Shown piece by piece: positions 6,988 to 24,799 of a DNA stretch of 64,000 bases. A program made the translations under genes and the position numbers. The stretch lies in the IMG/VR virus record IMGVR_UViG_3300032030_000058, positions 9,733 to 73,732 of that record, one strand, 5' to 3'. Numbering within the stretch: position 1 is the first letter of the stretch; the number at the start of each line of letters is the position of its first letter. Below the pieces are notes generated by a model that had not been told where the DNA came from, did not search any database, and saw nothing but the letters and a program-made list of their open reading frames with translations. This stretch comes from a virus.

Positions 6988-7014
6988 TTTAACCCTCCTT
7001 TGGTAATCAATTAT

Positions 7015-7042
7015 ATATTATAGGAAAAATTAAAATGTGTCA
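7015..7042 (-). promoter_or_regulatory. minus-strand promoter (TTGACA-16-TAATAT) for the ADP-ribosylglycohydrolase gene
   Basis: TGTCAA at 7037-7042 on the plus strand = -35 on the minus strand; -10 at 7020-7015. Confidence 0.5.
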
Positions 7043-7050
7043 AGCACTTT

Positions 7051-12291: not shown

Positions 12292-13602
12292 CTATGCTGC
12301 TGGAGTGGTGAATGCTGCAGTTGAGATAACTGTAACTTTACCATTGTGAGCACCGAAGAGTTTGTAACCAGTTGAAGCAGTTAAGATACCGCTTAAATCT
12401 TGGTATGGAAGCACTTCGATTGCAGCTCCTGGAACACTGTCACCAACTGCTGGAATGCTTGCAGAAGCAATAGCGTAAAGTTTTGTGACTAATAATCCAG
12501 GTCTTAATGGACTAATCCATGTTCCAGTGATCATGTTCATGCTTGCGTCATAGGAGAAGTTGAGTGTTGGTTCAACAGCTGCGACGTCAGAAACGTGAGC
12601 ATAAACACCAATTCTCTTATTATCTAAGACGAATAAATCGTGATAGATACGAACGTTCACTTTGTAACCATCGAAATCTTGGACAACGCCAGGACCGAAT
12701 GTCTTAACGTGTTCATATTTAACGACGTGAGCAACTTTGGATGGATCGCAGACGATAAAGTCGATTTGTTTATTGCCTGTATCCCATGTGTAACCACCGT
12801 TACCAGAGTTGAGTAATTTAATCATAGTTCTGAAACGTGAATTTGGAACAGTGATTAATTTTCTACCTTCGTATTCTTCGATTTTGAAACTAATGTTACC
12901 TTTGAATTCAGAAGCATCGATAGTTCTGATTAATTCATTAGTATTTCTTAATTTGTTTCTGAAAGATGTAGAACAGAAGATAACTTGTCTTTCTGCTGGA
13001 ACTTCAGCGTTATCTAAAGTTTCGAAAGCAAGATTTAAGTGATAAATAGGACCATTTAATGTGTATCCTAATTGACCAGCAACTGGATCAGCGATTGCTG
13101 TGCTGTTAACTGTGCCAGCGTATTCTGCTAATTTTGAGAACACATAAGCATCAACTTCAGGAACAACGTTAACTCTGTTGGTTTCTTTTAAAGCCATAGC
13201 GACTGCTAAACCATCAGTTTCTTCATCGTCCATTAATTCGATTCTTAATTGAATAGCACGATCAACTCTGAGTGTGAACTCTTCCCACACAACAGCGATA
13301 TCGCCTTCTGGATAACCGTAACCTTCGCCTGCTGCATAAGGTGTAGCGGAACCGGCTGCGTAATCACCAGAAACTGGGACATTAGCACGGCCATAGTCTT
13401 TTAAACCAGCACCCATGAATTTTGCGACTTTAACGGTCTTTGTGCCTGTGAATTTTAAGAAGTCTTTTTCACCATCTAAGATAGAGGAACGAGCTTCTGC
13501 TACATATACTTCATCCCAGGCTTTTGTAGCGTATTTTTGAATAAGAGCAATAGCATTACCTGCCATAATATTTTTTCCTTCCTCCGATTTAACGGAACTC
13601 AT
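12292..13602 (-). CDS. major capsid protein (HK97-fold, phi29-like with C-terminal Ig-like domain)
   Basis: 436 aa; sits directly downstream of two acidic scaffold-like genes, has its own strong terminator, and has a Thr/Ser/Val-rich C-terminal ~100 aa that looks like a BIG2/Ig-like extension. Confidence 0.6.
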   Translation of the reverse strand: MSSVKSEEGKNIMAGNAIALIQKYATKAWDEVYVAEARSSILDGEKDFLKFTGTKTVKVAKFMGAGLKDYGRANVPVSGDYAAGSATPYAAGEGYGYPEGDIAVVWEEFTLRVDRAIQLRIELMDDEETDGLAVAMALKETNRVNVVPEVDAYVFSKLAEYAGTVNSTAIADPVAGQLGYTLNGPIYHLNLAFETLDNAEVPAERQVIFCSTSFRNKLRNTNELIRTIDASEFKGNISFKIEEYEGRKLITVPNSRFRTMIKLLNSGNGGYTWDTGNKQIDFIVCDPSKVAHVVKYEHVKTFGPGVVQDFDGYKVNVRIYHDLFVLDNKRIGVYAHVSDVAAVEPTLNFSYDASMNMITGTWISPLRPGLLVTKLYAIASASIPAVGDSVPGAAIEVLPYQDLSGILTASTGYKLFGAHNGKVTVISTAAFTTPAA

Positions 13603-13660
13603 TATGGAAATATGCTATGTTTCTTTTTTGTGGCTTATCAAGTTTAACTTATAATATATA

Positions 13661-14059: not shown

Positions 14060-14077
14060 GTGTGATTTACTCCTTAA

Positions 14078-14839: not shown

Positions 14840-15077
14840 GTTTAACCTCCTGGAACGAGTAATTAACGTAAAAATAATTTACTAGAATTATATTAGCATG
14901 TATTTTTCGTGTGTGTAAATAAAAAATGATAAGGTTTTGTGCGTGGGCGTGAAGAATAACAATATGCTGGAAAAAAATGTTGACTTGGGTGGGCCGAAAA
15001 ATTTGTGGAGGCATTTAGAAAAAACCCAATCGGCAAAAACCCCCTCAACACCCCTCCCCCTACCTGATGTCCTCAAA

Positions 15078-15104
15078 CAAAAAATGACTAGCGTCCTAGT
15101 CATA
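15078..15104 (-). terminator. rho-independent terminator (minus-strand direction) in the late-operon upstream region
   Basis: Perfect 8 bp stem ATGACTAG-cgtc-CTAGTCAT followed by a T-run on the minus strand. Confidence 0.5.
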
Positions 15105-15283
15105 GTTCGAGAGGTTGCAGCCTCTTAGTTATAAAGGAGGATGTTCATTATATGTCCGAAATGAAAACCTACAGCTTTAGTATACAGCATCGATTCGTTA
15201 CCGTGCAAGAAAATTCCATCACCAGACAAGTTGGATTGCCCATAGAGCTTTTGAAAAAAATCGCACTATACTAAAAATAATTG

Positions 15284-15312
15284 TTGACAACATATATTAA
15301 TGGATATATAAT
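15284..15312 (+). promoter_or_regulatory. early sigma-A-type promoter P1 (TTGACA-17-TATAAT)
   Basis: -35 15284-15289, -10 15307-15312, AT-rich UP element aaaataattg. Confidence 0.7.
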
Positions 15313-15343
15313 TTAGGTAGTTAAAAACAAAGGAGCAAAAAAT

Positions 15344-15727
15344 ATGACACTAAATGAACTCTTAAAAAAACTTAGCACCATTAAAAAATATCGCTGGTTC
15401 CATGTGGTTTACACTAGCACTATCAATGGTTACAAAAAAACCACTACAAGCATTGTTAGGTTTGCTGACTATAAAAAGGCTGATGGCACCATGAACGAGC
15501 CTAAAAAGACCAATGTAAGCGAGTATATCATGCATTGTGAAAATACCGGCAATACCAATTTACAAGTATTCGTTACCAAATGCAAAAACCATAAGCCACA
15601 TAGTGTTTATGAGTATATGGGCAAAGAGATTAGTAAAGAGGAATATTATGAGGGTTCTCACAAAAAGCCATCTTCACCATCTCAATGTTTCTATCTCACC
15701 ATTGACAACATTGTAGCAATTTACTAA
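15344..15727 (+). CDS. early hypothetical protein
   Basis: Promoter 15284-15312, AAGGAG RBS, 127 aa. Confidence 0.6.
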   Translation: MTLNELLKKLSTIKKYRWFHVVYTSTINGYKKTTTSIVRFADYKKADGTMNEPKKTNVSEYIMHCENTGNTNLQVFVTKCKNHKPHSVYEYMGKEISKEEYYEGSHKKPSSPSQCFYLTIDNIVAIY

Positions 15728-15740
15728 GGGGGTTATAAAA

Positions 15741-15914
15741 ATGTTCAAAGTTGGAGATACCATTAAAATTATCTACATGGAAGGAGAGCCACAATATAGT
15801 GGCAAAATAGGCACCATTACTCACATTGACGATATTGGTCAATTACATGGGACTTGGGGTGGTTGTGCACTAATTCCAAATGTGGACGAGTTCCAAAAAA
15901 TTGAGAGCCGATAA
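15741..15914 (+). CDS. small early protein (57 aa)
   Basis: AAGGGGG RBS 6 nt upstream of ATG; followed by terminator 15904-15930. Confidence 0.5.
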   Translation: MFKVGDTIKIIYMEGEPQYSGKIGTITHIDDIGQLHGTWGGCALIPNVDEFQKIESR

Positions 15915-15930
15915 CATCGGTTCTTTTTTT
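15904..15930 (+). terminator. intrinsic terminator
   Basis: CCGAT-aac-ATCGG hairpin plus T8. Confidence 0.6.
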
Positions 15931-15978
15931 TAGCATCAATCGACCGTGCAAGAAGGAGATGGCGGCGGATGTCGATGG

Positions 15979-15996
15979 TTCCTAAAATCTTAGGAA
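15979..15996. promoter_or_regulatory. palindromic operator TTCCTAAAATCTTAGGAA upstream of P2
   Basis: Near-perfect 18 bp inverted repeat ~20 bp upstream of the -35. Confidence 0.5.
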
Positions 15997-16016
15997 AAAT
16001 TTTCTATAAATAATTG

Positions 16017-16045
16017 TTGACAATATATATACAATAATATATAAT
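16017..16045 (+). promoter_or_regulatory. early promoter P2 (TTGACA-17-TATAAT)
   Basis: -35 16017-16022, -10 16040-16045. Confidence 0.7.
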
Positions 16046-16072
16046 GGTAGTGTAGATAAGGAGATAAAAACT

Positions 16073-16198
16073 ATGTTCGCTAAAACCTATGTAATTATGC
16101 CATTGGAGTGGGATTATGATAATGACCACCATAATATGATAAGATACCTATCTAATCAAGGTATCATTGTTCCTAGTGATATTGTTCGCTTGGATTAA
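16073..16198 (+). CDS. small early ORF (42 aa), possibly the 5' part of a frameshifted gene
   Basis: Promoter 16017-16045, AAGGAG RBS; a further 41-codon ORF follows in the +1 frame (16213-16338) without an RBS before the terminator. Confidence 0.35.
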   Translation: MFAKTYVIMPLEWDYDNDHHNMIRYLSNQGIIVPSDIVRLD

Positions 16199-16212
16199 TT
16201 GTGTGGCTCTAT

Positions 16213-16338
16213 GGAGTGTTCAAAGGGCTATGCGGTTGGCACCATTACAAAACTTAAAAAGGAATATCCATATGTCAAGTTTGGACTATTCGAGGGAGCA
16301 ACTTGGGGTTCACTGACCATTGTTCAAGAGTTCTAATT
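16213..16338 (+). pseudogene. possible downstream fragment of a frameshifted early gene
   Basis: ORF MECSKGYAVG... in a different frame from 16073-16198, no SD, same transcription unit. Confidence 0.25.
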
Positions 16339-16339
16339 G

Positions 16340-16367
16340 AAGTATCCTGATGCGGGATACTTTTTTT
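16340..16367 (+). terminator. intrinsic terminator
   Basis: GTATCC-tgatgc-GGGATAC plus T7. Confidence 0.65.
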
Positions 16368-16452
16368 ATGCGATGCTGGACCGTGCTAAAAAATCCGATG
16401 GCGGATCCAGGATGAAGCTCACCATCAATGTTTGTTAACTTATAATTTTGTG

Positions 16453-16481
16453 TTGACAATATATATAAAATGATATATACT
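16453..16481 (+). promoter_or_regulatory. early promoter P3 (TTGACA-17-TATACT)
   Basis: -35 16453-16458, -10 16476-16481. Confidence 0.65.
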
Positions 16482-16505
16482 ATAATTAGAAAGAAGGAAC
16501 AAATC

Positions 16506-16931
16506 ATGAGTGAAAAACAAAAGCAAGAAGCCATTAAAAGAATGAGACTTCTACAAATTATGAATAGCGTCATTACCGACTTTAAAAATAATGGTCGTAT
16601 TTATTATAGTGAAAGGCAGAATTCAATGTTTCCAGCCACACTGTATTGGTTAGACAATAAACCTGAATGGGTTGCAATGGTCAAGGACTTTGAAAAAAGA
16701 AATCATGCCCTTGTCTATCATGCTCAATTAACTCACACACAAGTGGGAGACTTGCTATCGTTATTATATGTTTCTAATGACGAGTCAAGCTGGGAAGAGG
16801 ACCGCGAATGGATAGTCAATGAAGATGGCTTGATGTATTCAATGGTCATTAATCTTGACGACGACACATTCAGCGACATGGGGACCATTCAAGTTCGACC
16901 AGCGATGGGAGGTGTAGTAAGAACGGCGTAA
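16506..16931 (+). CDS. early hypothetical protein
   Basis: Start at ATG 16506 preceded by GAAGGAAC RBS; promoter 16453-16481. Confidence 0.6.
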   Translation: MSEKQKQEAIKRMRLLQIMNSVITDFKNNGRIYYSERQNSMFPATLYWLDNKPEWVAMVKDFEKRNHALVYHAQLTHTQVGDLLSLLYVSNDESSWEEDREWIVNEDGLMYSMVINLDDDTFSDMGTIQVRPAMGGVVRTA

Positions 16932-17042
16932 CAGCCGCTCTTTTTTTTAGCTTCAATTACCGTGCTAATACAGTGGATCCAGATTCAGATGCGGATCGTC
17001 TTCTGGCGTTCGAATCTTTTTAAAAAAATTTAATTTTAGGTA

Positions 17043-17071
17043 TTGACAATATATATAAAATAATATATACT
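17043..17071 (+). promoter_or_regulatory. early promoter P4 (drives ncRNA candidate)
   Basis: -35 17043-17048, -10 TATACT 17066-17071; 27/29 identical to P3. Confidence 0.65.
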
Positions 17072-17077
17072 ATATAT

Positions 17078-17289
17078 GTAAGATGAATAAACAAGTGTTG
17101 GGAAGATGATGTTCTCTTACAGCGAATAACCAAAGACTGCTATAGTGTCATAATAGGCGTAAGGTGGACGAAACCCTGGTTGGTTGGGCCGACGACTCGT
17201 ATGGTGTTTGCTACGTCACAACGTTAAATAGAACGTAGAACATAACTTAATAGTTTGGGAGAAGGTGGTTCGAAACACCTTCTTTTTTT
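17078..17289 (+). ncRNA. candidate ~210 nt non-coding RNA (promoter to terminator with no ORF and no RBS)
   Basis: Canonical early promoter 17043-17071 followed by no SD or ORF longer than 8 codons, internal hairpins (GTAAGA/TCTTAC, CTACGT/ACGTAG), intrinsic terminator 17259-17289. Confidence 0.45.
17259..17289 (+). terminator. intrinsic terminator ending the ncRNA candidate
   Basis: GAAGGTG-gttcgaaa-CACCTTC plus T7. Confidence 0.65.
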
Positions 17290-17393
17290 GCACCTGATAA
17301 CGCAACTGGATCTAAATCGCCGCATCAGATGAACCGTGCTAAACAGCATCATCTGGAATTCGGATGGAGCTGGGAAATTCTTCAAAAATAATG

Positions 17394-17422
17394 CTTGACG
17401 ATATATATACAATAATATATAA
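17394..17422 (+). promoter_or_regulatory. early promoter P5 (TTGACG-17-TATAAT)
   Basis: -35 17394-17399, -10 17417-17422. Confidence 0.65.
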
Positions 17423-17451
17423 TATAAGTAGTTAATAGGAGGAATACTAAT

Positions 17452-17868
17452 ATGACCATTAGACAAACATTATCAAACTACGTTATAAGTGAAATGACCA
17501 ACGAGGAACTATTCACTGAACTATCAAATTCTTTACCATTCAAGAGCAAAAGAGAGCATACTAAATGGTTATCGTTAAAGGGCACACAACAATGGTTGAC
17601 CATGACCGAAAAAGTTCTTAAACGAGCCAATACGCAAGTTTACCATGTCAAATTGGAACGTGGTTCACGTATTGAAATCAATGGTACAGGTTTCTATTCA
17701 TTTGAGGACTATTACACAAGTATCAAACTTGAACCAAATGAGAGCCATCGTTACATCAAGGAACAAACCATTGACCATATTCGTCAACAAATTGCTACTA
17801 GTATCCTTAAAAATGTCAAGAGATGGAAAGATATTGGTATTGATATGGCTGACCTAAGAGTGTTGTAA
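17452..17868 (+). CDS. early hypothetical protein
   Basis: Promoter 17394-17422, AGGAGG RBS, 138 aa. Confidence 0.6.
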   Translation: MTIRQTLSNYVISEMTNEELFTELSNSLPFKSKREHTKWLSLKGTQQWLTMTEKVLKRANTQVYHVKLERGSRIEINGTGFYSFEDYYTSIKLEPNESHRYIKEQTIDHIRQQIATSILKNVKRWKDIGIDMADLRVL

Positions 17869-17883
17869 ATCAAACCATAAACA

Positions 17884-17920
17884 TAAAAAAGAGAAGGGTT
17901 ATTCGCCCTTCTTTTCTTTT
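17884..17920. terminator. bidirectional terminator
   Basis: AGAAGGG-ttattcg-CCCTTCT flanked by an A-run and a T-run; the same hairpin family recurs at 60397-60430. Confidence 0.6.
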
Positions 17921-18141
17921 TCCATCGCAGCTTTGGCCAGATCCTTGATGTATTGAGCCGTGCTGTATTTGGATCTCAGGAAGTCATAGATCATCATCTG
18001 TTCTGGATCATCTTTCTTAAACATGATGGTCATTGAACAGTAGTTACTCTTGTTATACTTCTTGATGTAATCTCTCTTCCTCTTGTAATATTCTTCTGTT
18101 GGCATAAATTCTCCTCCTTCTCCATCAGCATCTGGATCCAC
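17899..18141 (-). CDS. hypothetical protein (minus-strand gene inside the early cluster)
   Basis: Own minus-strand promoter 18161-18189 (TTGACC-17-TACAAT), GGAGGAG RBS, bidirectional terminator 17884-17920. Confidence 0.55.
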   Translation of the reverse strand: MDPDADGEGGEFMPTEEYYKRKRDYIKKYNKSNYCSMTIMFKKDDPEQMMIYDFLRSKYSTAQYIKDLAKAAMEKEKKGE

Positions 18142-18160
18142 TATCCGTGCTGTGTATATA

Positions 18161-18189
18161 ATTGTATATTAGGATTCCAGATTGGTCAA
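18161..18189 (-). promoter_or_regulatory. minus-strand promoter for 17899-18141 (TTGACC-17-TACAAT)
   Basis: -35 18189-18184, -10 18166-18161 read on the minus strand. Confidence 0.55.
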
Positions 18190-18196
18190 GAAAAAA

Positions 18197-18225
18197 TTTA
18201 CAAGTATATATAAAATGGTTATAAT
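18197..18225 (+). promoter_or_regulatory. promoter P6 (TTTACA-17-TATAAT), drives sRNA candidate
   Basis: -35 18197-18202, -10 18220-18225. Confidence 0.6.
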
Positions 18226-18231
18226 AATGAT

Positions 18232-18338
18232 GAAGGTGAATTAATTAAGCCCCCAATTAAATAACGCAATTCATTAAACTTTTTCATTTCAAACTAAAAA
18301 TCCATCACCTTCAGCAGTCCCTCGTGGACTGTTTTTTT
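18232..18338 (+). ncRNA. candidate ~105 nt small RNA
   Basis: Promoter TTTACA-17-TATAAT at 18197-18225, no ORF longer than 5 codons, closing helix GAAGGTGA/TCACCTTC, terminator 18313-18338. Confidence 0.4.
18313..18338 (+). terminator. intrinsic terminator
   Basis: CAGTCC-ctcgt-GGACTG plus T8. Confidence 0.65.
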
Positions 18339-18413
18339 TGATTCAGCTAACCGTGCTATACGGCGACGCCAGATGAATCAAAATTGAGCTGGAAAAAAAT
18401 TTAATTTACCCCC

Positions 18414-18442
18414 TTGCAAATATATATACTTTGATATATAAT
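18414..18442 (+). promoter_or_regulatory. early promoter P7 (TTGCAA-17-TATAAT)
   Basis: -35 18414-18419, -10 18437-18442. Confidence 0.65.
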
Positions 18443-18470
18443 ATAGATAGTTAAAAGGGAGATAAAAAAC

Positions 18471-18761
18471 ATGACAACTACTTCAAAACAAACTAAGGCT
18501 TGGAAAGAACTTTTCTCAGCCATATTCGAAGAAAATGGATACTTCGAAAACTTACGTCAATTCGCAAAGGACCATGGTTATAGCAATCAAGACATGACTG
18601 AAATGCTTTATGAAAGCTACATGCACAATTGCCCTGAAGGTATGGGACCTTATTATTTCATGGACAGTATGGAAGAGCATTACGAGGACATGAAAGACAG
18701 CGTGGAAAATATTTACGATATGGTGGACTGGCTATGGGACCATCAAGCGTGGAAGGAGTAA
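18471..18761 (+). CDS. early acidic hypothetical protein
   Basis: Promoter 18414-18442, AAGGGAG RBS. Confidence 0.6.
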   Translation: MTTTSKQTKAWKELFSAIFEENGYFENLRQFAKDHGYSNQDMTEMLYESYMHNCPEGMGPYYFMDSMEEHYEDMKDSVENIYDMVDWLWDHQAWKE

Positions 18762-18765
18762 AACA

Positions 18766-19059
18766 ATGGAAAACAAATACTATGAGCTTGGTTGGAGGCT
18801 TAATTCAACACAAAGGAAAGCCCTAAAAGACCTTGGCTACCATGTGTATGCAACTCGTTCTTGGGACGAAGGTTGTGGCTCTACATTGGAACATCGTGTC
18901 CTTGTTAACCACGAAACAGACGTCATTACAAACTTCCCAGCATTGGACGACAACAATCCTGAAGACATGGCTAACGACTTCTACGAGCGCATGGAAGAAT
19001 TCAATGCTACCAGCGACCTAGAAATCACCCCTGAAATGAGAACCATCTTGGAAATGTAA
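18766..19059 (+). CDS. early acidic hypothetical protein
   Basis: Coupled 4 nt after upstream gene, GGAGTAA RBS. Confidence 0.55.
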   Translation: MENKYYELGWRLNSTQRKALKDLGYHVYATRSWDEGCGSTLEHRVLVNHETDVITNFPALDDNNPEDMANDFYERMEEFNATSDLEITPEMRTILEM

Positions 19060-19065
19060 AGGAGG

Positions 19066-19098
19066 GAGAGGCTGCCATCAGCAGCTTCTTTTTTTTAT
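19066..19098 (+). terminator. intrinsic terminator
   Basis: GCTGC-catca-GCAGC plus T9. Confidence 0.65.
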
Positions 19099-19248
19099 GC
19101 CTCCTTCACTGCACGGTTAGAAGCTGGATTCGCCTGAATTCTGGAGATTCATCTGGAAGCTCACCTGGGGATTCATCTGGGCGATTACCGTGCTCGATCG
19201 ATGTCCACAGAGCTTCTACCAGAATCCAAAAAATAATTAAAATAATGG

Positions 19249-19277
19249 TTGCAAGTATATATACATTAATATATAAT
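19249..19277 (+). promoter_or_regulatory. early promoter P8 (TTGCAA-17-TATAAT)
   Basis: -35 19249-19254, -10 19272-19277. Confidence 0.65.
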
Positions 19278-19306
19278 ATAGGTAGTTAATAGGAGGAACA
19301 TATCCC

Positions 19307-20038
19307 ATGGAAAAAACAACAAACATATTGCTTGGTCTAGCAATTAAACACAATGGTAATTGGAGTAGCATTTACCATGACTTACAACAAAAGGACTATG
19401 AAGGTGCAGAGGCACTCGCAGAGGCTTATACAGGCTCTTTTATCACTATCCTTGACGAAGAATATCCTGACTACTTAAAACAAGCCCACAAGCCACCATT
19501 TGTGCTATTTTATAATGGCGACATTTCTTTATTAAAAAAGGAACACACACGAGTATGCGTATCAACAAGTAGAGCAACTGACGAAGACTCACTTTCTTTC
19601 TTGCACTCTTTAATTAACAATGACTACAACGACATTGACTATGTTATAAGCGAAACCACACACAACATTGAAATAGACAGGAAGAAACACCACGCCATTT
19701 GCGTTGCAGGTTGTGGTCTTGAACTCGTCAATTGCACCAACTACGACTTAATAATCAGTGAATATCCTAGTGGCACACCAAAAGCCTCGGAAGGTATGCT
19801 TGGAGCATATCGTATTATGGCAGGTATTTCTTCAAAAATAATGGTCGGTAAAGTTAAAAGACTAAGCGGAACGAATGCCCTTATCTCCTTCGGTTTATAT
19901 CAAAACAAGGACATATTAGTTATGCCTGTTAAACCAAAGGAAAACATTGAGGAAGACCTTGGCAATAATAAACTTATCTACGACGGAGCAATACCACTAG
20001 TAGACAAGGAACAGTTAGCGTTCTATCTAGGTCATTAA
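19307..20038 (+). CDS. DprA/Smf-like (Rossmann/SLOG-type) protein, divergent
   Basis: HHAICVAGCGLEL...LIISEYPSGTP...GAYRIMAGISSKIMVGKVKRLSGTNALIS matches the DprA core (TIAVLGSGLD...LLISEYPPGTP...RNRIIAGLS...SGSLITA); the canonical SGLARGID motif is replaced by SETTHNIEID. Confidence 0.55.
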   Translation: MEKTTNILLGLAIKHNGNWSSIYHDLQQKDYEGAEALAEAYTGSFITILDEEYPDYLKQAHKPPFVLFYNGDISLLKKEHTRVCVSTSRATDEDSLSFLHSLINNDYNDIDYVISETTHNIEIDRKKHHAICVAGCGLELVNCTNYDLIISEYPSGTPKASEGMLGAYRIMAGISSKIMVGKVKRLSGTNALISFGLYQNKDILVMPVKPKENIEEDLGNNKLIYDGAIPLVDKEQLAFYLGH

Positions 20039-20042
20039 AAAA

Positions 20043-20070
20043 GTGTCGGAAATTTATCCGACATTTTTTT
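20043..20070 (+). terminator. intrinsic terminator
   Basis: GTCGGAAATTTATCCGAC plus T7. Confidence 0.65.
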
Positions 20071-20114
20071 CTGGGGCGGTCACCGTGCTATGCGGCAGAT
20101 GATCCGGATCCAGC

Positions 20115-20132
20115 TTCCTAAAATTTTAGGAA
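20115..20132. promoter_or_regulatory. palindromic operator TTCCTAAAATTTTAGGAA upstream of P9
   Basis: Perfect 18 bp palindrome 24 bp upstream of the -35. Confidence 0.5.
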
Positions 20133-20156
20133 ATTAAATTCACCTAAAAATAATTG

Positions 20157-20185
20157 TTGACATCAATTTGTATATAATGTAATAT
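20157..20185 (+). promoter_or_regulatory. early promoter P9 (TTGACA-17-TAATAT)
   Basis: -35 20157-20162, -10 20180-20185. Confidence 0.65.
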
Positions 20186-20212
20186 ATATAACGTAAACAG
20201 GAGGTATACCAA

Positions 20213-20431
20213 ATGAAAACAACCATCTCATTCTACAACTCAACTACTGCCTTATGGGTAAACTTTGACGACAAATTTATGGCTCTCAAAGACCAGCACT
20301 CAAAAGGTGAAATGAGTGAAGTTTACGATTTCGGTGTTGGCTTAATCGAAGTTAAGGCAACTGATGGTGAAATCGAAGCTACTCGTAAAGTGCTTGAAAC
20401 ACAAGGGTTCACATTCATTTATATCGAATAA
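20213..20431 (+). CDS. early hypothetical protein
   Basis: Promoter 20157-20185, AGGAGG RBS, 72 aa. Confidence 0.6.
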   Translation: MKTTISFYNSTTALWVNFDDKFMALKDQHSKGEMSEVYDFGVGLIEVKATDGEIEATRKVLETQGFTFIYIE

Positions 20432-20523
20432 GAAGGATGTCCATCAGGGCATTCTTTTTTTATGTCTCAATCACCGTGCTATATTGCCACGATCCGAACA
20501 TCTAAAAAACTATAAATAATTAT

Positions 20524-20552
20524 TGACTTCTATATATAAAAGGATATATATT
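20524..20552 (+). promoter_or_regulatory. early promoter P10 (TTGACT-17-TATATT)
   Basis: -35 20524-20529, -10 20547-20552; first of a tandem pair. Confidence 0.6.
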
Positions 20553-20624
20553 ATAGACAGGTAGTTGAAGAGAGCACCTCAAAAAATCAACTACAAAAAA
20601 AATTAAAAAAAATAAAAAAACCTA

Positions 20625-20653
20625 TTGACACATTTTAAAAAATAATGTAATAT
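20625..20653 (+). promoter_or_regulatory. early promoter P11 (TTGACA-17-TAATAT)
   Basis: -35 20625-20630, -10 20648-20653. Confidence 0.65.
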
Positions 20654-20741
20654 ATAGGTGTAAGGTAAAGAACGAGGAACGTTCACGAGGGCCTTACGAA
20701 CAAACTTAAAACGTGGAAGAACCACTATAGGAGAATTAAAA

Positions 20742-21023
20742 ATGTTTGTAAAAATTACTCGAATTAACAACCAAAATCACGAAAAAGAATTAGTAGTCAA
20801 CACTGACGAAATCGTCTTTCTAAGCGAATGCGAAGACCACATCAACTATGACAAGCCTATCGCATACGAAGAAACCACTGACGAAGACACAGGTATCATT
20901 ACCAAAGTCCCAAGTGAGTGGGAAATCGAAAAACGTTATGTTATCGGTTTCAAAAACGGAAAACACCCACAAATCGTAGACAAAACCAATTACGAAAAAT
21001 TAGCCGAAATCTTACTCAAATAA
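20742..21023 (+). CDS. early hypothetical protein
   Basis: Tandem promoters 20524-20552 and 20625-20653, ~80 nt structured leader, TAGGAGAA RBS. Confidence 0.6.
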   Translation: MFVKITRINNQNHEKELVVNTDEIVFLSECEDHINYDKPIAYEETTDEDTGIITKVPSEWEIEKRYVIGFKNGKHPQIVDKTNYEKLAEILLK

Positions 21024-21046
21024 GAAAGTAGGGTAAAATAGCCACT

Positions 21047-21082
21047 GGAAGAGAGCCCACCTCGAACTCTCTTCTTTTTTTG
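21047..21082 (+). terminator. intrinsic terminator
   Basis: GAAGAGAG-cccacctcgaa-CTCTCTTC plus T7. Confidence 0.65.
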
Positions 21083-21145
21083 TCTTCGCGACGGCGGATG
21101 GAAGGCGGATCAACGTGGGCATCCTATGGCACGGTCATATGATTC

Positions 21146-21163
21146 TTCCTAAATTTTTAGGAA
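21146..21163. promoter_or_regulatory. palindromic operator TTCCTAAATTTTTAGGAA upstream of P12
   Basis: Third copy of the same palindrome, 15 bp upstream of the -35. Confidence 0.5.
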
Positions 21164-21178
21164 ACTTGCAAATTTGTG

Positions 21179-21207
21179 TTGACAATATATATCAAATAAT
21201 ATACAAT
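21179..21207 (+). promoter_or_regulatory. early promoter P12 (TTGACA-17-TACAAT)
   Basis: -35 21179-21184, -10 21202-21207. Confidence 0.65.
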
Positions 21208-21231
21208 GGTAGCATAAGGAGGGCATATCCC

Positions 21232-21537
21232 ATGAAAAGCAAATACGTAGAGTATAGAGATTTCTATATTACATCATTCGTTGACTACGATAAGGAATTG
21301 TTCGTTATGGTCAACATCAGTGGCGACACACTAGTGGAAAACTTCACTAGCAACTTCTTCTCTAAAGAAGACTTAGTTATTGACTATTATAAGTTAATCT
21401 CCAAATGTGCCACAGGAGGGGACGAAGACGATATTATTCCATACACACGCAAGTATATGGCGCATATCGTGAGAGTTTCACAAGAGGAACTTAATATGGA
21501 CTATATTAATTTCTCTCTAAAGGGGGTCCAATTATGA
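21232..21537 (+). CDS. early hypothetical protein
   Basis: Start at ATG 21232 after TAAGGAGGG; promoter 21179-21207. Confidence 0.6.
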   Translation: MKSKYVEYRDFYITSFVDYDKELFVMVNISGDTLVENFTSNFFSKEDLVIDYYKLISKCATGGDEDDIIPYTRKYMAHIVRVSQEELNMDYINFSLKGVQL

Positions 21538-21755
21538 GACGCTACTACATAATTACCGACCTTGTCCACAGTCAAGACTATCTTACGTGGGCGTATGACC
21601 ATAGTGACATCCTTGGTGCAGCAATATGCTTTGCTGAAAAACAAGGCGTCACCATCAATGACCTGCGTATGTATGCCTGCTCCACCAAAAAAGAGTGGGA
21701 CGCATACGGAACAGCTCACTTCTCTCGTATCAAAGCGTGGCAATGCACCAAATAA
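21534..21755 (+). CDS. early hypothetical protein
   Basis: ATGA overlap with upstream gene; followed by two terminators. Confidence 0.55.
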   Translation: MRRYYIITDLVHSQDYLTWAYDHSDILGAAICFAEKQGVTINDLRMYACSTKKEWDAYGTAHFSRIKAWQCTK

Positions 21756-21989
21756 GGCATCAAACGGCTCGATTCAGCCGTTTTTTGTTGTTTTCCGAGT
21801 AATTCCTCGTTTTCATACACAAACACATCTTAAACGGCGGATTCGTAACATCCGCTTTTTTGATGCTTCAGGGACGTTCACCGTGCTAACCAGATGAATC
21901 GAGTTAGTACCAGAATCATCCCACATCTAAGATGTGAATTACTGTCCATCAAAAAATTAATTTTTTTTGCAAATTATTCATTTTTATAT

Positions 21990-22185
21990 TAACTATAAAA
22001 TAGAATAATTATGCAAAGGGACCATTTTGGTGAATCGAGTTAGCGTTTTGCTATTATTATCTTACATATATATATACATACACATATTGGGAATTATAGG
22101 AAAATTCTAACTCAACTAATCAAATTTAACATTAGTAGATAGACTACTAAAAAAATCAACGTTCTATAAATAATTATTGACTTGG
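21990..22185 (+). repeat. ~190 bp direct repeat, copy A
   Basis: ~80% identical over ~110 bp to 28250-28445 (tttggtgaatcgagttagcg...atatatatacatacacatat...) and shares the identical ctataaataattattgac promoter-like end. Confidence 0.6.
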
Positions 22186-22347
22186 CACTTTTTGGCGTTT
22201 TTTGAGCTTTTTGCTTTCCTTTCTTCTTCTAAGAATTCTTCTTCTTCTCCTTGCGATGCTTCTGGATCAGGACCTAGCACGGATAGCTTCATGTGCATGT
22301 CCAGGACCGGGTTAGCATCAGGGTGAAAATTTGTTACAAAAATATAT

Positions 22348-22375
22348 TGACAACCATTTTCAAATAATATATACT
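22348..22375 (+). promoter_or_regulatory. promoter P13 (TTGACA-16-TATACT), drives sRNA candidate
   Basis: -35 22348-22353, -10 22370-22375. Confidence 0.6.
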
Positions 22376-22381
22376 GTAGTT

Positions 22382-22487
22382 GCAATGATGGAGATATGTA
22401 TTCTCCTATAACTTAAAAACCCATAGTCATGTTAATTCCTTTCATTGCACTAATCTGTCAGTTTACATAGCCTGGCAGATTTTTTTA
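22382..22487 (+). ncRNA. candidate ~105 nt small RNA
   Basis: Promoter TTGACA-16-TATACT at 22348-22375, only 8- and 12-codon ORFs, internal hairpin GGAGA/TCTCC, terminator ATCTGTCAG/CTGGCAGAT plus T7 at 22453-22487. Confidence 0.4.
22453..22487 (+). terminator. intrinsic terminator ending the sRNA candidate
   Basis: ATCTGTCAG-tttacatagc-CTGGCAGAT plus T7. Confidence 0.6.
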
Positions 22488-22599
22488 TGCCCAGCTCAGG
22501 ATCTGGACAGGATCTGAATCCGATTTCGCATATTAGCACGGTAGGTTAATTATAGAATCGATGCCGCTTCAGAAAATGAAAAAATACTATAAAAATATA

Positions 22600-22628
22600 T
22601 TGACATATACATGTATATAATGTAATAT
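22600..22628 (+). promoter_or_regulatory. early promoter P14 (TTGACA-17-TAATAT)
   Basis: -35 22600-22605, -10 22623-22628. Confidence 0.65.
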
Positions 22629-22653
22629 ATAATTGTCAATAGGAGGTCACAAT

Positions 22654-23268
22654 ATGGCTATAAAAATCTCAACTACAAACTCAAAACTAGGGTTCATGAT
22701 TCCTAGTATATCACTACCACCGCAACACTCTTGTCGTCCTGACGCGCCTTGTGCGAAGGGTTGCTATGGTAAAAAGGGCAATTTCTTATTTAGTAACGTT
22801 CAACAGTCTCATATGGTCAACTTTGAAGAATATCAAAAAAATCCTAACGGGTACTTCAAACAAATTATTGAATACTTAAATTGCGGACTCATATCACATA
22901 AATTCTTTCGTTGGCATACTGTCGGCGACATCGTAGACTACAATTATTTTCTCGGAGTCGTTAGTGTGGCGCGTAAATGTAAAGACACTAAGTTCTTACT
23001 ATTCACGAAGAAGTTCGACATCATCAACGACTACGTGGGCGCCGGTAACACTATTCCTAGAAATTTATCAATTGTGTTTTCCGCGTGGCATAAGGGTTTT
23101 AAAGTCGACAATCCTTATGACTTCCCTGTCGCGTATGTGTTCTTTAAGAAGACAGAACTCAATCCTGACATCCCAGCTATGGCTATCCCTTGTTCTGGTC
23201 ACTGTCCATCTTGTTTAGCCTGTTGGAGTCTTAAAAAAGGTCAATCAGTGTTCTTCAATCAACACTAA
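22654..23268 (+). CDS. Cys-rich early protein (N-terminal CxxxxxCxxxC and C-terminal CSGHCPSCLAC clusters)
   Basis: Start at ATG 22654 after AGGAGG; promoter 22600-22628; 204 aa. Confidence 0.55.
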   Translation: MAIKISTTNSKLGFMIPSISLPPQHSCRPDAPCAKGCYGKKGNFLFSNVQQSHMVNFEEYQKNPNGYFKQIIEYLNCGLISHKFFRWHTVGDIVDYNYFLGVVSVARKCKDTKFLLFTKKFDIINDYVGAGNTIPRNLSIVFSAWHKGFKVDNPYDFPVAYVFFKKTELNPDIPAMAIPCSGHCPSCLACWSLKKGQSVFFNQH

Positions 23269-23328
23269 TTAAACCGCCGAAGTAGGGACGCGGTATATAA
23301 GACAGCCTTGGGATAGCGGACCAACGCT

Positions 23329-23359
23329 AGAAGGGAATCGATCCCTTCTTTTTTTTATG
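23329..23359 (+). terminator. intrinsic terminator
   Basis: GAAGGGA-atcga-TCCCTTC plus T8. Confidence 0.65.
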
Positions 23360-23496
23360 CGGATTTATCTAGCACGGTAATGGATCCACGGCGGCGATTC
23401 TCTGGATCCAGACAGCTTCAGATCAAGATGAATAACCGTGCCGGAAGCTGTACGATCAGAATCCATCCTGGATCAGAAAAAAACTGTAAATTTATA

Positions 23497-23526
23497 TTGA
23501 CATATATATATCCAATAATATACAAT
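23497..23526 (+). promoter_or_regulatory. early promoter P15 (TTGACA-18-TACAAT)
   Basis: -35 23497-23502, -10 23521-23526. Confidence 0.6.
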
Positions 23527-23552
23527 GAGAGTGTCAATAGGAGGATATACAA

Positions 23553-23924
23553 ATGACAAACTACAACACTTTAACACCTTACAAACATCATCAAATCGAA
23601 GACTGGGGCGGCGTTATCAGTGACGACTTCAAATCATTCGCTCGCAAGTGGCAAAACTTCTTAAAACGCATGTGTGCAAATAACGGTTGGGAGCTATGCA
23701 ACTTCAATCGCGGACACTACTACTGTTCCTGGTTCATCAAAAACGGTGACAAATACGTTTACTGCTCATTCGGAGACGTCAGGCACTTCTCCAGAGACTG
23801 GTATAAACTCATTCTCCATCGCGTCGCAAAAAATGAACGCGACTATACCGGTGGAAGTAACTGGTACACCGAACTCGAAAATCTCGAAGGAGCAATTACC
23901 AGACGGTTCCAGACTGGATATTAG
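23553..23924 (+). CDS. early hypothetical protein (Cys/Trp-rich)
   Basis: Promoter 23497-23526, AGGAGG RBS, bidirectional terminator 23934-23968. Confidence 0.6.
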   Translation: MTNYNTLTPYKHHQIEDWGGVISDDFKSFARKWQNFLKRMCANNGWELCNFNRGHYYCSWFIKNGDKYVYCSFGDVRHFSRDWYKLILHRVAKNERDYTGGSNWYTELENLEGAITRRFQTGY

Positions 23925-23933
23925 TTCAAAAAA

Positions 23934-23968
23934 TAGAAAAGAGCTGATCATCTCAGCCCTTTTTTATT
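23934..23968. terminator. bidirectional terminator between convergent genes
   Basis: GCTGA-tcatc-TCAGC with an A-run upstream and a T-run downstream. Confidence 0.55.
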
Positions 23969-24761
23969 TCTTAGAATTAATAGCACGGTTACGCCAGCTC
24001 TGCATCAACTTCCTGGTTCTTCTCATATCCGTCTTCATCTGCAATGGTAAACTCGCATCACCAAAACTCTTCTTCACCACCTGCATCAATTTTAAACGGT
24101 CCCTGTAGAAGCGATACTGTTGAACCTCATACGAAATATATTCCTGAGCCGAAACACGCCTTAAACGGCCGATTTCAGCGAAAGAAACAGGAATCAATCT
24201 GTGGCGACAGTTCTTACGTGTGCATAGGTATGGCGGCTGAAGCATCACTTCGTCCACACTTAGTAACCCGGCGTTAAATATATATGCCTTCTCTTCATCT
24301 GAATACTCAGCGTTCTTTTTATAATAAATTCTGCCCTGATACGCAGCGTGGTCTTTAGCTGGATCTGTGAACTCCGTGCAATAGTAGAACTTTGAATCCC
24401 CCTGAAGAACATCCACGAGCTCTTCATGCTTCTTACGGTACTCGATATTATCCACAACATCGTTCTTGATCTTCTCCAGCATCGGGGTATCATCTCTAAG
24501 CACGGCATATATCGATGCGGCGCGATCATCTGCATCAACTTTCCGGGCTGCACCAGCTACGGTATGTTTGTAGAAATTCATGGCAAATAACCAGAGCGAG
24601 TGCCGCTCATTATCGTTCAGATGCTGAACATTCTGGATGATCTTCTTCACCTGACGCATCACTGATCTTTTATCAGCACGGTTAAGTACGCTAGATGTGA
24701 TCACCGCCACGATCTTTAGCTCTGCATTATATATTAAATTCTTATAATACCCTGTGTTCAT
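23964..24761 (-). CDS. hypothetical protein, possible MuF-like minor head protein (follows the portal)
   Basis: 265 aa, GC-richer codon usage shared with the portal gene; the position after the portal parallels SPP1 gp6-gp7. Confidence 0.35.
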   Translation of the reverse strand: MNTGYYKNLIYNAELKIVAVITSSVLNRADKRSVMRQVKKIIQNVQHLNDNERHSLWLFAMNFYKHTVAGAARKVDADDRAASIYAVLRDDTPMLEKIKNDVVDNIEYRKKHEELVDVLQGDSKFYYCTEFTDPAKDHAAYQGRIYYKKNAEYSDEEKAYIFNAGLLSVDEVMLQPPYLCTRKNCRHRLIPVSFAEIGRLRRVSAQEYISYEVQQYRFYRDRLKLMQVVKKSFGDASLPLQMKTDMRRTRKLMQSWRNRAINSKK

Positions 24762-24799
24762 GGTTTTATTATATAAAAAAGAGCTCCTAAATGGAACTC

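Follow-up and report, generated by a model that had tools for sequence, protein, structure and literature searches.

The 64,000-nucleotide stretch of phage DNA that we analysed (the window) contains an early-gene island that is inverted relative to the − strand head genes around it, with scaffold/MCP genes on the left flank and gp7-like and portal genes on the right. Each early cassette consists of a sigma-A-type promoter, a small open reading frame (ORF) or none, and an intrinsic terminator, and the promoters have the form TTGACA-17-TATAAT with a conserved ATATATA spacer. The island also encodes a DprA-like RecA loader (19307–20038). A first-pass annotation described a family of GC-rich repeats placed after the early terminators between 15940 and 23460. 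What recurs in these ‘intergenic repeats’ is a single exact hexamer, CCGTGC, the core of the consensus A-CCGTGC-T-A. The reported 9-mer ACCGTGC(T/A)A is real but wider than the true unit, which has 30 copies, and the array, although present in the described interval, runs well beyond it, from 13,385 to 26,620.

15100..23960, + strand: inverted early-gene island, about 20 short cassettes amid − strand head genes
13385..13390, − strand: isolated outlying CCGTGC copy inside the major head protein gene
15201..21886, + strand: left arm, core starts (6 nt each) at 15201, 15944, 16381, 16960, 17334, 17958, 18145, 18351, 19188, 20083, 20474 and 21881; two opposite-sense (−) copies at 19111 and 21129
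21887..22276, no strand: polarity switch point, with direct and inverted repeats
22277..26625, − strand: right arm, GCACGG on the + strand at 22277, 22536, 23372, 23983, 24500, 24676, 24898, 25766, 25884, 26037, 26206, 26487 and 26620; two opposite-sense (+) copies at 23436 and 24374

The copies listed previously were placed correctly to within about 6 nt (15943, 16380, 16959, 17333, 18350, 19187, 20082, 20473, 21880 and 23435 on the + strand; 19111, 22536, 23372 and 23983 inverted), but the list omitted 15201 (+), 21129 (−), 13385 (−), 22277 (−), the variants at 17958 and 18145, and 11 late-gene copies. In the reconstructed 79,025-bp circular genome, all 30 copies of CCGTGC fall within 13.2 kb (17% of the genome, about 1 site per 440 bp), and an exact-word count finds none in the remaining 65.8 kb; within the window, about 5 would be expected outside the array and 0 were observed. 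Counts against expectation bear out the earlier observation and show a non-random motif: ACCGTGC occurs 19 times (1.99 expected) and ACCGTGCWA 13 times (0.49 expected), a number reached in 0 of 100 shuffles. No 8-mer in the window is more over-represented than TAGCACGG/CCGTGCTA. One-mismatch variants of the hexamer are not enriched, and there is no match in Rfam.

The orientation of the copies divides the array into two opposed arms. On the left (15.2–21.9 kb), 12 of 14 copies lie on the + strand, and on the right (22.3–26.6 kb), 13 of 15 lie on the − strand, so that 25 of the 30 copies in the window are concordant with a bipolar order (permutation p = 0.0009). In this phage the switch point falls on the array’s most AT-rich non-coding DNA (GC 0.25 over 300 bp) and contains one member of a pair of AT-rich repeats, the other being located 1.7 kb outside the array, just upstream of a − strand operon (193 aa–125 aa–222 aa–portal). 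Analogous repeat pairs are present in relatives.

22025..22181, + strand: AT-rich repeat of about 160 bp, copy 1, ending in an early-type UP/-35 (CTATAAATAATTATTGAC) with no matching -10
28281..28437, + strand: copy 2, 72% identical to copy 1 (E = 3e-15)

GC skew differs weakly between the arms (L−R = +0.05), with a sign that corresponds, if to anything, to converging forks; the same comparison at GC3 is not significant (p = 0.18). DnaA boxes do not cluster.

Within the island, the motif follows 13 of 14 early terminators (hairpin plus T-run, + strand) in either orientation, as the first-pass annotation had noted, and, also in agreement with it, neither promoter nor terminator function explains the motif. 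The core most often begins 11–15 nt beyond the T-run (8 of 14), with 2 cases at 17–19 nt and 3 at 44–49 nt; the fourteenth terminator (T-run 21781–21786), which stands upstream of a second one in tandem, is 94 nt from the core.

15924..23965, + strand: early terminators, T-run end and distance in nt to a + core: 15931 (12), 16367 (13), 16948 (11), 17289 (44), 18339 (11), 20070 (12), 20461 (12), 21861 (19)
Same interval and strand: T-run end and distance in nt to an inverted core: 19096 (14), 21081 (47), 22486 (49), 23356 (15), 23965 (17)

Eleven copies (23983 to 26620) are found within late genes or at their ends. One-third of all copies are inside protein-coding late genes, and in the gp7-like, portal and 222-aa ORFs the copies from 23983 onward occur in codon phases 0, 1 and 2, indicating that selection acts on the DNA. 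The portal gene contains 6 copies compared with 0.88 under synonymous-codon shuffles (P < 0.0005), and the gp7-like gene 3 compared with 0.54. The + strand early ORFs contain no copy, against about 14 predicted from the mean density of the array. The first right-arm copy is in the last codons of the 222-aa gene. Of 22 relatives with the island, 21 carry this gene, whose product has no recognisable fold.

26588..27256, − strand: gene for a 222-aa protein, directly upstream of portal

A search for the same element in related phages, as had been proposed, found about 25 relatives that share both the CCGTGC array and its exclusion elsewhere, over a range of portal identity down to 32% and GC contents of 31–55%. 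Of 29 newly fetched loci, 19 have a hexamer-containing k-mer as their top 7-mer, and in 6 others such k-mers are among the first four; 129 kb of upstream flank from 14 relatives contains 0 copies (12–27 expected). Across the family, 16–31 sites are spread over 7–13 kb, with concordant polarity of 16/16, 18/18, 19/19, 21/22 and 23/24 copies in relatives. Motif and island co-occur: relatives carry the same inverted island after portal/gp7, and two portal relatives without it have no array. The island genes form a mosaic of varying content and order and otherwise cannot be aligned, whereas the exact hexamer and the junction modules are kept; in one relative (L104), terminator, motif and UP element fill an entire 30-nt gap. 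The hexamer is exact over deep divergence although its flanks are not conserved. Given that the island genes are shuffled and polarity persists, polarity must be kept by position rather than by descent. The switch itself has no conserved sequence across relatives; in L134 it falls over a gene, and an AT minimum lies near it in roughly 8 of 20 relatives, close to chance. The three most informative properties had been missed previously: the bipolar polarity, the lack of any copy in the remaining genome, and the family-wide conservation.

Two opposed sets of sites together with exclusion elsewhere suggest a direction-sensitive DNA signal. CCGTGC is probably a cis-acting signal under strong selection, read in a strand- and direction-sensitive manner by a factor conserved across this uncultured phage family; it would label, as two arms facing opposite ways, the inverted early-gene island together with the adjoining late genes, and would not be tolerated elsewhere in the genome. 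The persistence of the same word across 31–55% GC and portal identities down to 32% argues for a reader that is phage-carried or at least invariant. A protein recognition site is the most sensible general reading, and to this extent the earlier interpretation of a terminator-proximal cis-element bound by a protein stands.

The preferred specific reading, tentative and at well below an even chance, is that the sites could be recognised by the primase-helicase of the phage itself and form a stretched iteron-type origin. The candidate reader has an NrS-1-type helix-bundle domain (HBD) match with E = 1.5e-24, and its homologues (47–100% identity) occur on many 60–85 kb contigs, including that of relative L123.

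49022..51583, − strand: 853-aa primase-helicase, putative reader, with NrS-1-type PrimPol helix-bundle domain, D5_N, SF3 helicase (DUF5906) and Pox_D5 C-terminal region

Such a self-loading enzyme (PrimPol-HBD-D5_N-SF3) would recognise and load at CCGTGC. Another iteron origin of a self-loading primase-helicase is the P4 alpha ori/crr. The array would be a greatly stretched version of the staphylococcal SaPI Rep/PriRep origins, in which asymmetric penta- or hexanucleotide iterons flank an AT-rich region, equally divided between its two sides and pointing in opposite directions, and are read by a primase-helicase of Firmicutes mobile elements (PMC9371898); the phage studied here similarly has a primase fused to an SF3 helicase, and the AT-rich switch point in the window counts in favour of an origin. 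The GTG at the center of the motif also recalls HBD PrimPols: the pRN1 primase (ORF904) needs GTG in the template and starts its primer 5′ of it (PMC2965215), and the HBD of NrS-1 PrimPol, the type found here, recognises GTG(A/G) and an 8-mer, TTTGGTTA (PMC8718748). Template recognition by HBD PrimPols is strand-specific and thus inherently polar. If the central GTG were the template triplet for a primer starting just 5′ of it, with the motif strand as template, + copies in the left arm would direct leftward synthesis and − copies in the right arm rightward synthesis, so that DNA synthesis begun anywhere within the island would proceed outward. Ectopic starts would be avoided by keeping the hexamer out of the rest of the genome; island sites would be confined to the only DNA that early transcription does not cross, directly after terminators, whereas in late genes they could occupy coding sequence.

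Several observations count against an origin of this kind. Known iteron origins span 100–300 bp beside the rep gene, and those of the SaPI and P4 type consist of 6–12 contiguous iterons within a few hundred base pairs directly after rep, whereas here 16–31 sites extend over 7–13 kb, partly in late genes, and the primase gene is 22–27 kb away. The AT-rich center is inconsistent across relatives, DnaA boxes are unclustered, and the skew between the arms is weak, with the sign of converging forks. The HBD family is known for specificities of 3–4 nt or one 8-mer rather than a hexamer such as CCGTGC, with no known arrays or genome exclusion. An origin also does not predict the 11–15-bp spacing from the T-run in either orientation, which a roadblock on double-stranded DNA, or common descent of a junction module, fits at least as well.

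Chi-like sites and polar roadblocks are live rivals to the origin. The former, a doubtful reading, holds that the motif attenuates a helicase-nuclease, either one of the host (AddAB/RecBCD-type) or one of the phage, which would enter at a double-strand end or break near the switch and move outward, protecting the first-expressed DNA and starting recombination. Chi is read from its 3′ side on the 3′-ended strand, and an enzyme moving outward from a break at about 22.1 kb would meet every concordant copy in this way; many close copies would suit probabilistic recognition by a fast translocase, and the DprA-like RecA loader of the island would fit. In phage LLS, 20 of the 23 Chi sites have the active orientation, with clustering at one end; Pseudomonas phage MD8 carries 32 with the same orientation; and no octamer is more frequent than Chi in the LLS and P1 genomes (PMC12315714). 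CCGTGC resembles these sites as a short, asymmetric, frame-independent oligomer within the genome’s most over-represented 8-mer, strongly oriented under DNA-level selection and regionally clustered, as in LLS and MD8. In LLS, MD8 and P1, however, the sites are host Chi in one orientation toward one end, without Rec modules or exclusion; here there are two opposed arms and a recombination module (PD-(D/E)XK exonuclease DUF3799, DUF669, RecU-like) of a kind that Chi-rich lambdoid phages lack. Chi logic does not predict total exclusion from the other 66 kb and from the 129 kb of relatives’ flanks, nor one hexamer across phages of 31–55% GC, as known Chi sequences vary between bacterial orders. 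There is no sign of a DNA end at the switch (the source assembly is circular and the contig starts of relatives are arbitrary), and the one Lachnospiraceae phage checked showed no enrichment, itself weak evidence.

Unlikely, though still live, are polar roadblocks, in which a tightly bound protein would back up the early terminators and insulate the late genes from early transcription, or would act as a Ter/Tus-like trap (RTP) that forks enter and cannot leave, or both. The Ter sites of E. coli and B. subtilis likewise form two opposed groups of a polar site with none elsewhere in the replicon. A core 11–15 bp past the T-run is close to the distance at which a bound protein arrests RNA polymerase at a point where the active site is in the U-tract, as known from EcoRI-Q111 and LacI roadblocks; copy-free early ORFs beside copy-bearing late ORFs fit obstruction of the polymerase during early reading, and the weak skew has the sign of converging forks, but it is not significant at third codon positions. 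Ter sites, however, are about 20–30 bp long and number about 10 per chromosome, far fewer than the approximately 30 here, and no terminator-protein candidate was found, the 222-aa portal neighbour having no recognisable fold. Copies co-oriented with portal and gp7 would hinder their transcription unless the protein were removed late, and the fixed spacing may derive from a minimal ancestral junction such as the 30-nt gap of L104.

It is very unlikely that the sites steer a double-stranded DNA translocase such as the terminase to the switch, for a packaging start or a break by motor collision. KOPS polarity converges around dif in a similar way, the array adjoins the portal gene, a packaging signal would be expected to be excluded elsewhere, and a collision could work without any particular sequence in the middle, in keeping with the lack of conservation there. 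Yet KOPS-type motifs are skewed genome-wide, not within 17% of the genome, and need dif, and here we found no dif-like site, no conserved target at the center and no FtsK/HerA-like motor or Type ISP-like gene in the phage; TerL is 8.5 kb away and at most 28% identical to PBSX-family terminases.

Retention of the T-run/9-mer/promoter module as homology for recombinational shuffling of early cassettes, as in the PeSL cassettes of T4-type phages, is most unlikely. Conserved junction modules amid mosaic gene content, with the motif at nearly every cassette boundary, accord with it, but the portal, gp7 and 222-aa coding copies, the strand polarity, which flips with position and not with gene orientation, and the genome exclusion are left unexplained, and homologous exchange would need more than a 9-mer, the 45–60-nt promoter repeats being better substrates. 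REP/BIME, MITE and PeSL elements share with the motif an intergenic position after terminators, at borders of shuffled small-gene cassettes, but consist of extended homologous or palindromic sequence, whereas here only an exact hexamer recurs, also in coding DNA and with positional polarity. The decaying REP- or MITE-like palindromes proposed earlier are extremely improbable and were rejected: although copies are intergenic and the two reported inverted pairs do exist (19111/19188 and 23372/23436, enclosing 57–77 bp), they occupy just 2 of 12 spacers, copies lie in coding DNA in three frames, the hexamer stays exact between deeply diverged phages while its flanks do not, and no transposase or RAYT gene was seen and no Rfam match exists. 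The 12 aligned spacers match only at the T-run, the 9-mer and an A/T-rich UP element, with a mean column identity of 32%, which excludes the common ancestor of about 90 bp that had been suggested.

The accompanying sub-words CAGATGA(A/T)TC and GGATCCAG are enriched and confined to the island, with 4 copies of CAGATGAWTC (0.34 expected) and 6 of GGATCCAG (0.72 expected).

16403, 16975, 18132, 20106, 23402 and 23404: sub-word GGATCCAG, in the GC-richer spacers that lead from the 9-mer to the next promoter
18370, 19146, 19170 and 21891: sub-word CAGATGAATC, in the same type of spacer

The copies reported beside the tRNA cluster proved to be single short sub-word matches (CCAGATGA at 51978 and GGATC at 51995) without the core motif. 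Of the two closest relatives checked, L001 contains neither GGATCCAG nor CAGATGA(ATC), and L002 lacks GGATCCAG; CAGATGAATC was likewise not found in this pair. The sub-words contain CCAGA/TCTGG, a word that is enriched in the island spacers of 10 of 20 relatives.

The motif ACCGTGC(T/A)A, which the first-pass annotation had reported between early terminators and the promoters that follow them, is real: 13 copies of the 9-mer are observed against 0.49 expected, the shorter ACCGTGC occurs 19 times against 2, and every position listed for it is correct to within about 6 nt. The top over-represented 8-mer of the window is TAGCACGG/CCGTGCTA. The unit is the hexamer CCGTGC, with a family consensus of A-CCGTGC-T-A (584 copies), and a weight matrix over the whole family is flat outside positions -1 to +7; which base precedes the core (A, G or C) depends on the lineage. 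The complete genome, a circular assembly of 79,025 bp (ENA ERZ27257205 k141_7069919) rebuilt from two flanking loci, contains 30 copies of CCGTGC, every one within 13,385-26,620, and none in the other 65.8 kb. The hexamer is enriched roughly tenfold in 17% of the genome and wholly excluded from the remaining 83%. Outside the array, the rest of the window has 0 copies against about 5 expected, and the upstream flanks of 14 relatives (129 kb in all) have 0 against 12-27 expected; one-mismatch variants behave normally. The contig ends were joined by a 141-bp k-mer overlap and contigs of relatives start at arbitrary points, as would be seen with permuted genomes or with terminal repeats collapsed in assembly.

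The array covers an island of early genes that is inverted among head genes and extends into the genes on its right. Cassettes of the island comprise a near-consensus sigma-A-type promoter (TTGACA-17-TATAAT with a common ATATATA-rich spacer), a small ORF or none, and a strong intrinsic terminator.

Main features of the window
12292-13602, minus strand, major head protein, left of the island
14078-14839, minus strand, scaffold, left of the island
15.1-23.96 kb, plus strand, early-gene island of about 20 short cassettes, set inverted among minus-strand head genes
15284-15312, 16017-16045, 16453-16481, 17043-17071 and 17395-17423, early promoters with the shared spacer module
18414-18442, 19249-19277, 21179-21207 and 23497-23526, further early promoters with the shared spacer module
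17899-18141, minus strand, small divergent gene (promoter 18189-18161; 68-80 aa; conserved in the relatives L001, L002 and L140)
23964-24761, minus strand, gp7-like minor capsid protein, right of the island
24800-26572, minus strand, portal, right of the island
26588-27256, minus strand, 222-aa protein, right of the island
35066-36610, TerL
47227-48624, SF2 helicase
49022-51583, PrimPol-HBD-D5_N-SF3 primase-helicase

Other genes in the window encode an RNA ligase/PNK, an SPFH protein and a recombination module made up of a DUF3799 PD-(D/E)XK exonuclease, DUF669 and a RecU-like protein.

The copies are strongly polarized. From 15.2 to 21.9 kb, 12 of 14 lie on the plus strand, and from 22.3 to 26.6 kb 13 of 15 lie on the minus strand, so that a single switch at 21887-22276 gives 25 of 30 concordant copies (permutation p = 0.0009). 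Island genes to the left and to the right of the switch point all share one orientation, so this polarity is not tied to transcription. In the window, the AT-richest stretch of the array (GC 0.25) lies 11 bp from the switch. A similar AT minimum is present in the relative L128 and falls within about 600 bp of the switch in about 8 of 20 relatives, close to the chance level; the switch sequence is not conserved among relatives, and in one of them (L134) it falls over a gene. An AT-rich or ORF-free centre was therefore rejected as a general rule, as it holds for the window and is not consistent in relatives. The arm-to-arm GC skew is weak (+0.05), the GC3 skew of co-oriented island genes is not significant, and DnaA boxes are clustered in no island.

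To our search set of 50,697 phage records, the region gave no megablast match, and portal and TerL found only distant protein relatives there (28% identity or less). Portal-based searches of viral and MAG contigs recovered about 30 loci, mostly 60-80 kb in length and labelled 'Clostridia' where labelled at all. In 19 of 29 newly fetched loci, a k-mer containing the hexamer ranks first among the 7-mers, and in six more it is among the top four, across GC contents of 31-55% and portal identities down to 32%. All island-bearing loci share one layout: no copies up to 10 kb upstream of the portal, copies co-oriented with the portal from between -60 and +2,300 of its start and, after a switch, oppositely oriented copies as far as the island's end. 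Concordance reaches 16/16, 18/18, 19/19, 21/22 and 23/24 in several of them. The gene content and order of the islands are mosaic, even among the closest relatives, so polarity is kept by position and is not inherited with the cassettes. The array is absent from L144 and L147, two relatives in which TerL directly precedes the portal and which have no inverted island; turnover to another motif was considered for these and rejected, the over-represented TGACCC being a scattered Tyr-Asp-Pro codon word. CCGTGC is not enriched in Anaerostipes phage AC844P1. Scanning viral contigs for the loose pattern T6-N8-16-ACCGTGCTA gave single matches that were mostly due to chance, with only three useful loci (L035, L104 and L107), and a single-sequence search of viral contigs for primase loci was negative.

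A third of the copies lie within late genes (gp7-like, portal and 222-aa protein, with one in the major head protein), which contradicts the idea that the motif is confined to non-coding DNA. Copies in late genes occupy codon phases 0, 1 and 2 and encode R-A, x-V-L or P-C-L. Of the 11 copies carried by the gp7-like, portal and 222-aa genes beside the island, 10 are on the coding strand. The portal gene has 6 copies against 0.88 in synonymous-codon shuffles (P < 0.0005) and the gp7-like gene has 3 against 0.54, which excludes a codon artefact. The portal gene has a conserved site near codon 27, at which relatives differ in the residue preceding Arg-Ala (Thr, Asp or Val) but the third base of its codon is always C. 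The use of all three phases, the excess over shuffles and the retained C together indicate that selection acts on the DNA word.

Within the island, copies are absent from early ORFs. The placement after early terminators described previously was borne out: in 8 of 14 hairpin-plus-T-run terminators the core follows at 11-15 nt, in 2 at 17-19 and in 3 at 44-49, and the fourteenth terminator, the upstream member of a tandem pair, is 94 nt from a core. Five of the 13 terminator-proximal copies have the opposite orientation, at distances like those of the others. Across the family, one class of copies has the core 11-14 nt past a T-run and a second has the mirror arrangement, 11-17 nt before an A-run; together they account for about 40% of copies with such a run nearby. 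Because the motif fills the whole 30-nt gap from terminator to UP element (the A/T-rich part upstream of early promoters) in the compact L104/L035 lineage, the fixed spacing may be partly ancestral.

These data reject a relic of a REP- or MITE-like element, as had been suggested. In a MAFFT alignment of 12 spacers (mean column identity of 32%), the T-run, the 9-mer and the UP element are the only parts that align, so the copies lack a common extended sequence, and many are coding. Nor is each copy palindromic: an inverted 9-mer pair is present in only 2 of the 12 spacers and most are single-copy. The earlier view that the motif is not a promoter holds, because nothing is conserved at a fixed spacing around it; for want of a partner half-site or a -10 element at fixed spacing, respectively, likenesses to a CIRCE half-site (TTAGCAC) and to a MotA-box-like promoter were also dropped.

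Chi, KOPS, Ter, iterons and primase sites are polar oligomers that give DNA machines direction. To our knowledge, descriptions in phages are limited to compact origins and, more recently, to host Chi sites clustered at an end, and we know of no system that has local enrichment, exclusion elsewhere and a strand switch that survives wholesale gene shuffling together, as this family does. The pattern resembles iterons, primase sites, Chi and Ter, and has the defining features of none in full. An exact asymmetric word with these patterns of enrichment and exclusion, polarity and conservation probably implies a specific reader, either carried by the phage or otherwise invariant, together with a directional process. 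The suggestion of binding sites for a DNA-binding protein is retained in a sharper form. The original observation is confirmed and enlarged, and there is a real chance that it represents something new, the mechanism of which we can only infer.

The first-ranked candidate, held tentatively, is that CCGTGC copies are recognition or loading sites of the phage primase-helicase. This protein is conserved in the phage family, with roughly 1,700 homologues, and has an HBD (Pfam E = 1.5 × 10−24; NrS-1-type, fused to an SF3 helicase), and the motif reads CC-GTG-C. HBD PrimPols need a template GTG and start just 5′ of it (pRN1, PMC2965215; NrS-1, PMC8718748); judged from sequence, a GTG core and an element-encoded HBD primase are found here too. 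With the motif strand as template, starts in either arm would run outward, and exclusion elsewhere would then prevent ectopic starts. The self-loading SaPI Rep/PriRep helicases use penta- or hexanucleotide iterons in opposed halves on each side of an AT-rich region (PMC9371898). Two opposed hexanucleotide sets are likewise present here; however, iterons are contiguous within a few hundred base pairs beside the rep gene, whereas these sites are on average about 440 bp apart over 13.2 kb. The primase-helicase reading thus demands a 100-fold stretch in scale and sites far from the primase gene (22-27 kb away); the AT-rich centre is inconsistent among relatives, the weak skew has the opposite sign and the terminator spacing is left unexplained.

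As a broader proposal, it is possible that the family, gut and rumen phages of about 75-80 kb, has an undescribed polar 'zone code', in which one exact hexamer present about 30 times in two converging arms over the early-gene island is forbidden elsewhere. Such a code would be read by a phage-encoded directional machine and would set the start or stop of DNA synthesis or of another end-generating or fork-handling event. The result would be a kilobase-scale dispersed origin or terminus in place of a compact one, and its sites would also act as elements next to terminators, in the DNA with the heaviest transcription.

Chi-like sites are a less likely reading, and have the best phage precedent. 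Here too the word is a short asymmetric oligomer that is over-represented in any reading frame, and the geometry, in which a nuclease coming from a DNA end reaches the site from its 3′ side, fits if a DNA end or break occurs at the switch (about 22.1 kb). However, Chi does not predict exclusion elsewhere, nor a single word across hosts in phages of 31-55% GC, which argues against a host-specific word; furthermore, Chi-rich phages lack their own recombination module (PMC12315714), and this phage has one. Were the motif a host Chi, the AddAB/RecBCD enzyme of the host would recognize it, and the host chromosome would carry ACCGTGCT in excess and with a replichore bias. Polar roadblocks or a fork trap, which we consider unlikely, best explain the 11-15 bp spacing in either orientation, the lack of copies in early ORFs and the layout, since a Ter/Tus trap also has two opposed groups of polar sites that are absent elsewhere. 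Such a trap needs forks that converge on the region and a dedicated terminator protein; gene searches recognized no candidate binding protein, and copies in the portal gene would hinder its own transcription. Translocase guidance or packaging is improbable and explains only part of the pattern: KOPS/dif has a genome-wide skew onto a conserved target, whereas this motif is confined to 17% of the genome, around a centre that is not conserved. Recombination at junctions, at least as improbable, also explains only a part.

The exact 9-mer provides a direct handle on the reader and may help to locate the origin, terminus or ends of abundant uncultured Firmicute-type phages. Opposed CCGTGC arrays beside a portal gene are a signature with which this family and its early host-takeover island can be recognized in metagenomes.

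Other words accompany the motif in the spacers. Both GGATCCAG and CAGATGAWTC are enriched; neither of the two closest relatives has GGATCCAG, and L001 lacks CAGATGA, the stem of CAGATGAWTC. A shorter word, CCAGA/TCTGG, is more widely kept (island spacers of the window and of 10 of 20 relatives). As CCAGAT, TCCAGA or ATCTGG, it shows a 5- to 7-fold enrichment within the 45 nt from the 9-mer to the next promoter (for example, in L143 and L123), at times as 2-3 closely spaced copies, and may be a second binding site. The palindrome TTCCTAAAATTTTAGGAA, at 15979-16000, 20112-20132 and 21146-21166, is just upstream of the UP elements of three early promoters and recurs in L001 spacers near 8161 and 12239; it is a possible operator, bound by a regulator of early genes. 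The early promoters share their hexamers and spacer (ATATATATA(C/A)AATAATATATA) and 20-30 nt on either side at 60-95% identity, which suggests an overlapping operator or concerted evolution. Degenerate variants of the motif (CCGTGCTG) occur at 18145 and 17958, in the 5′ leader and coding sequence of the small divergent gene; its product looks ribbon-helix-helix-like by eye and matches only PHROG 4223 (function unknown).

Three promoter-plus-terminator units (17043-17290, 18197-18340 and 22347-22487) have no ORF of at least 40 aa, which makes them candidates for small RNAs; L128 conserves the first at 77% (11898-12061). None of the three has an Rfam match, and the predicted fold of 17078-17292 is no improvement on its shuffles (z = -0.53). 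Over 14.5-24.5 kb, an Rfam search at E ≤ 1 returned no meaningful match, and the CCGTGC motif is not a known RNA. On the island's left border (15040-15066 and 15084-15103), an unusual C-rich tract (CCCCCTCAACACCCCTCCCCCTACC) adjoins a minus-strand terminator. The scaffold gene has its own promoter (TTTACA-18-TAATAT, 14919-14890) downstream of this tract.

An AT-rich direct repeat of about 160 bp (22025-22181 and 28281-28437; 72% identity, E = 3 × 10−15) links the switch point to DNA just upstream of the 193aa-125aa-222aa-portal operon. Repeats of 130-470 bp (74-84% identity) similarly link DNA about 2.2 kb upstream of the portal to the far part of the island in relatives, including L136 (7664-7945, 19014-19294 and 19398-19681), L134, L138, L148, L150, L002 and L124. 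Their pairs are often inverted, forming a large palindrome flanked by motif copies. The repeat may represent an origin or a pac region, or may have a regulatory role common to both places.

Accessory genes (6184-8833, 28986-31196 and 31256-32731) include an ADP-ribosyltransferase that adjoins an ADP-ribosylglycohydrolase, a 736-aa kinase-phosphatase-RNA ligase fusion of the RNA-repair type and an SPFH/flotillin-like protein. The early island itself encodes a DprA-like DNA recombination-mediator protein (19307-20038, plus strand; Pfam E = 7 × 10−21) and a cysteine-rich GP88-family protein (22633-23268, plus strand; E = 4.5 × 10−23), homologues of which recur in the islands of 11 of 22 relatives.
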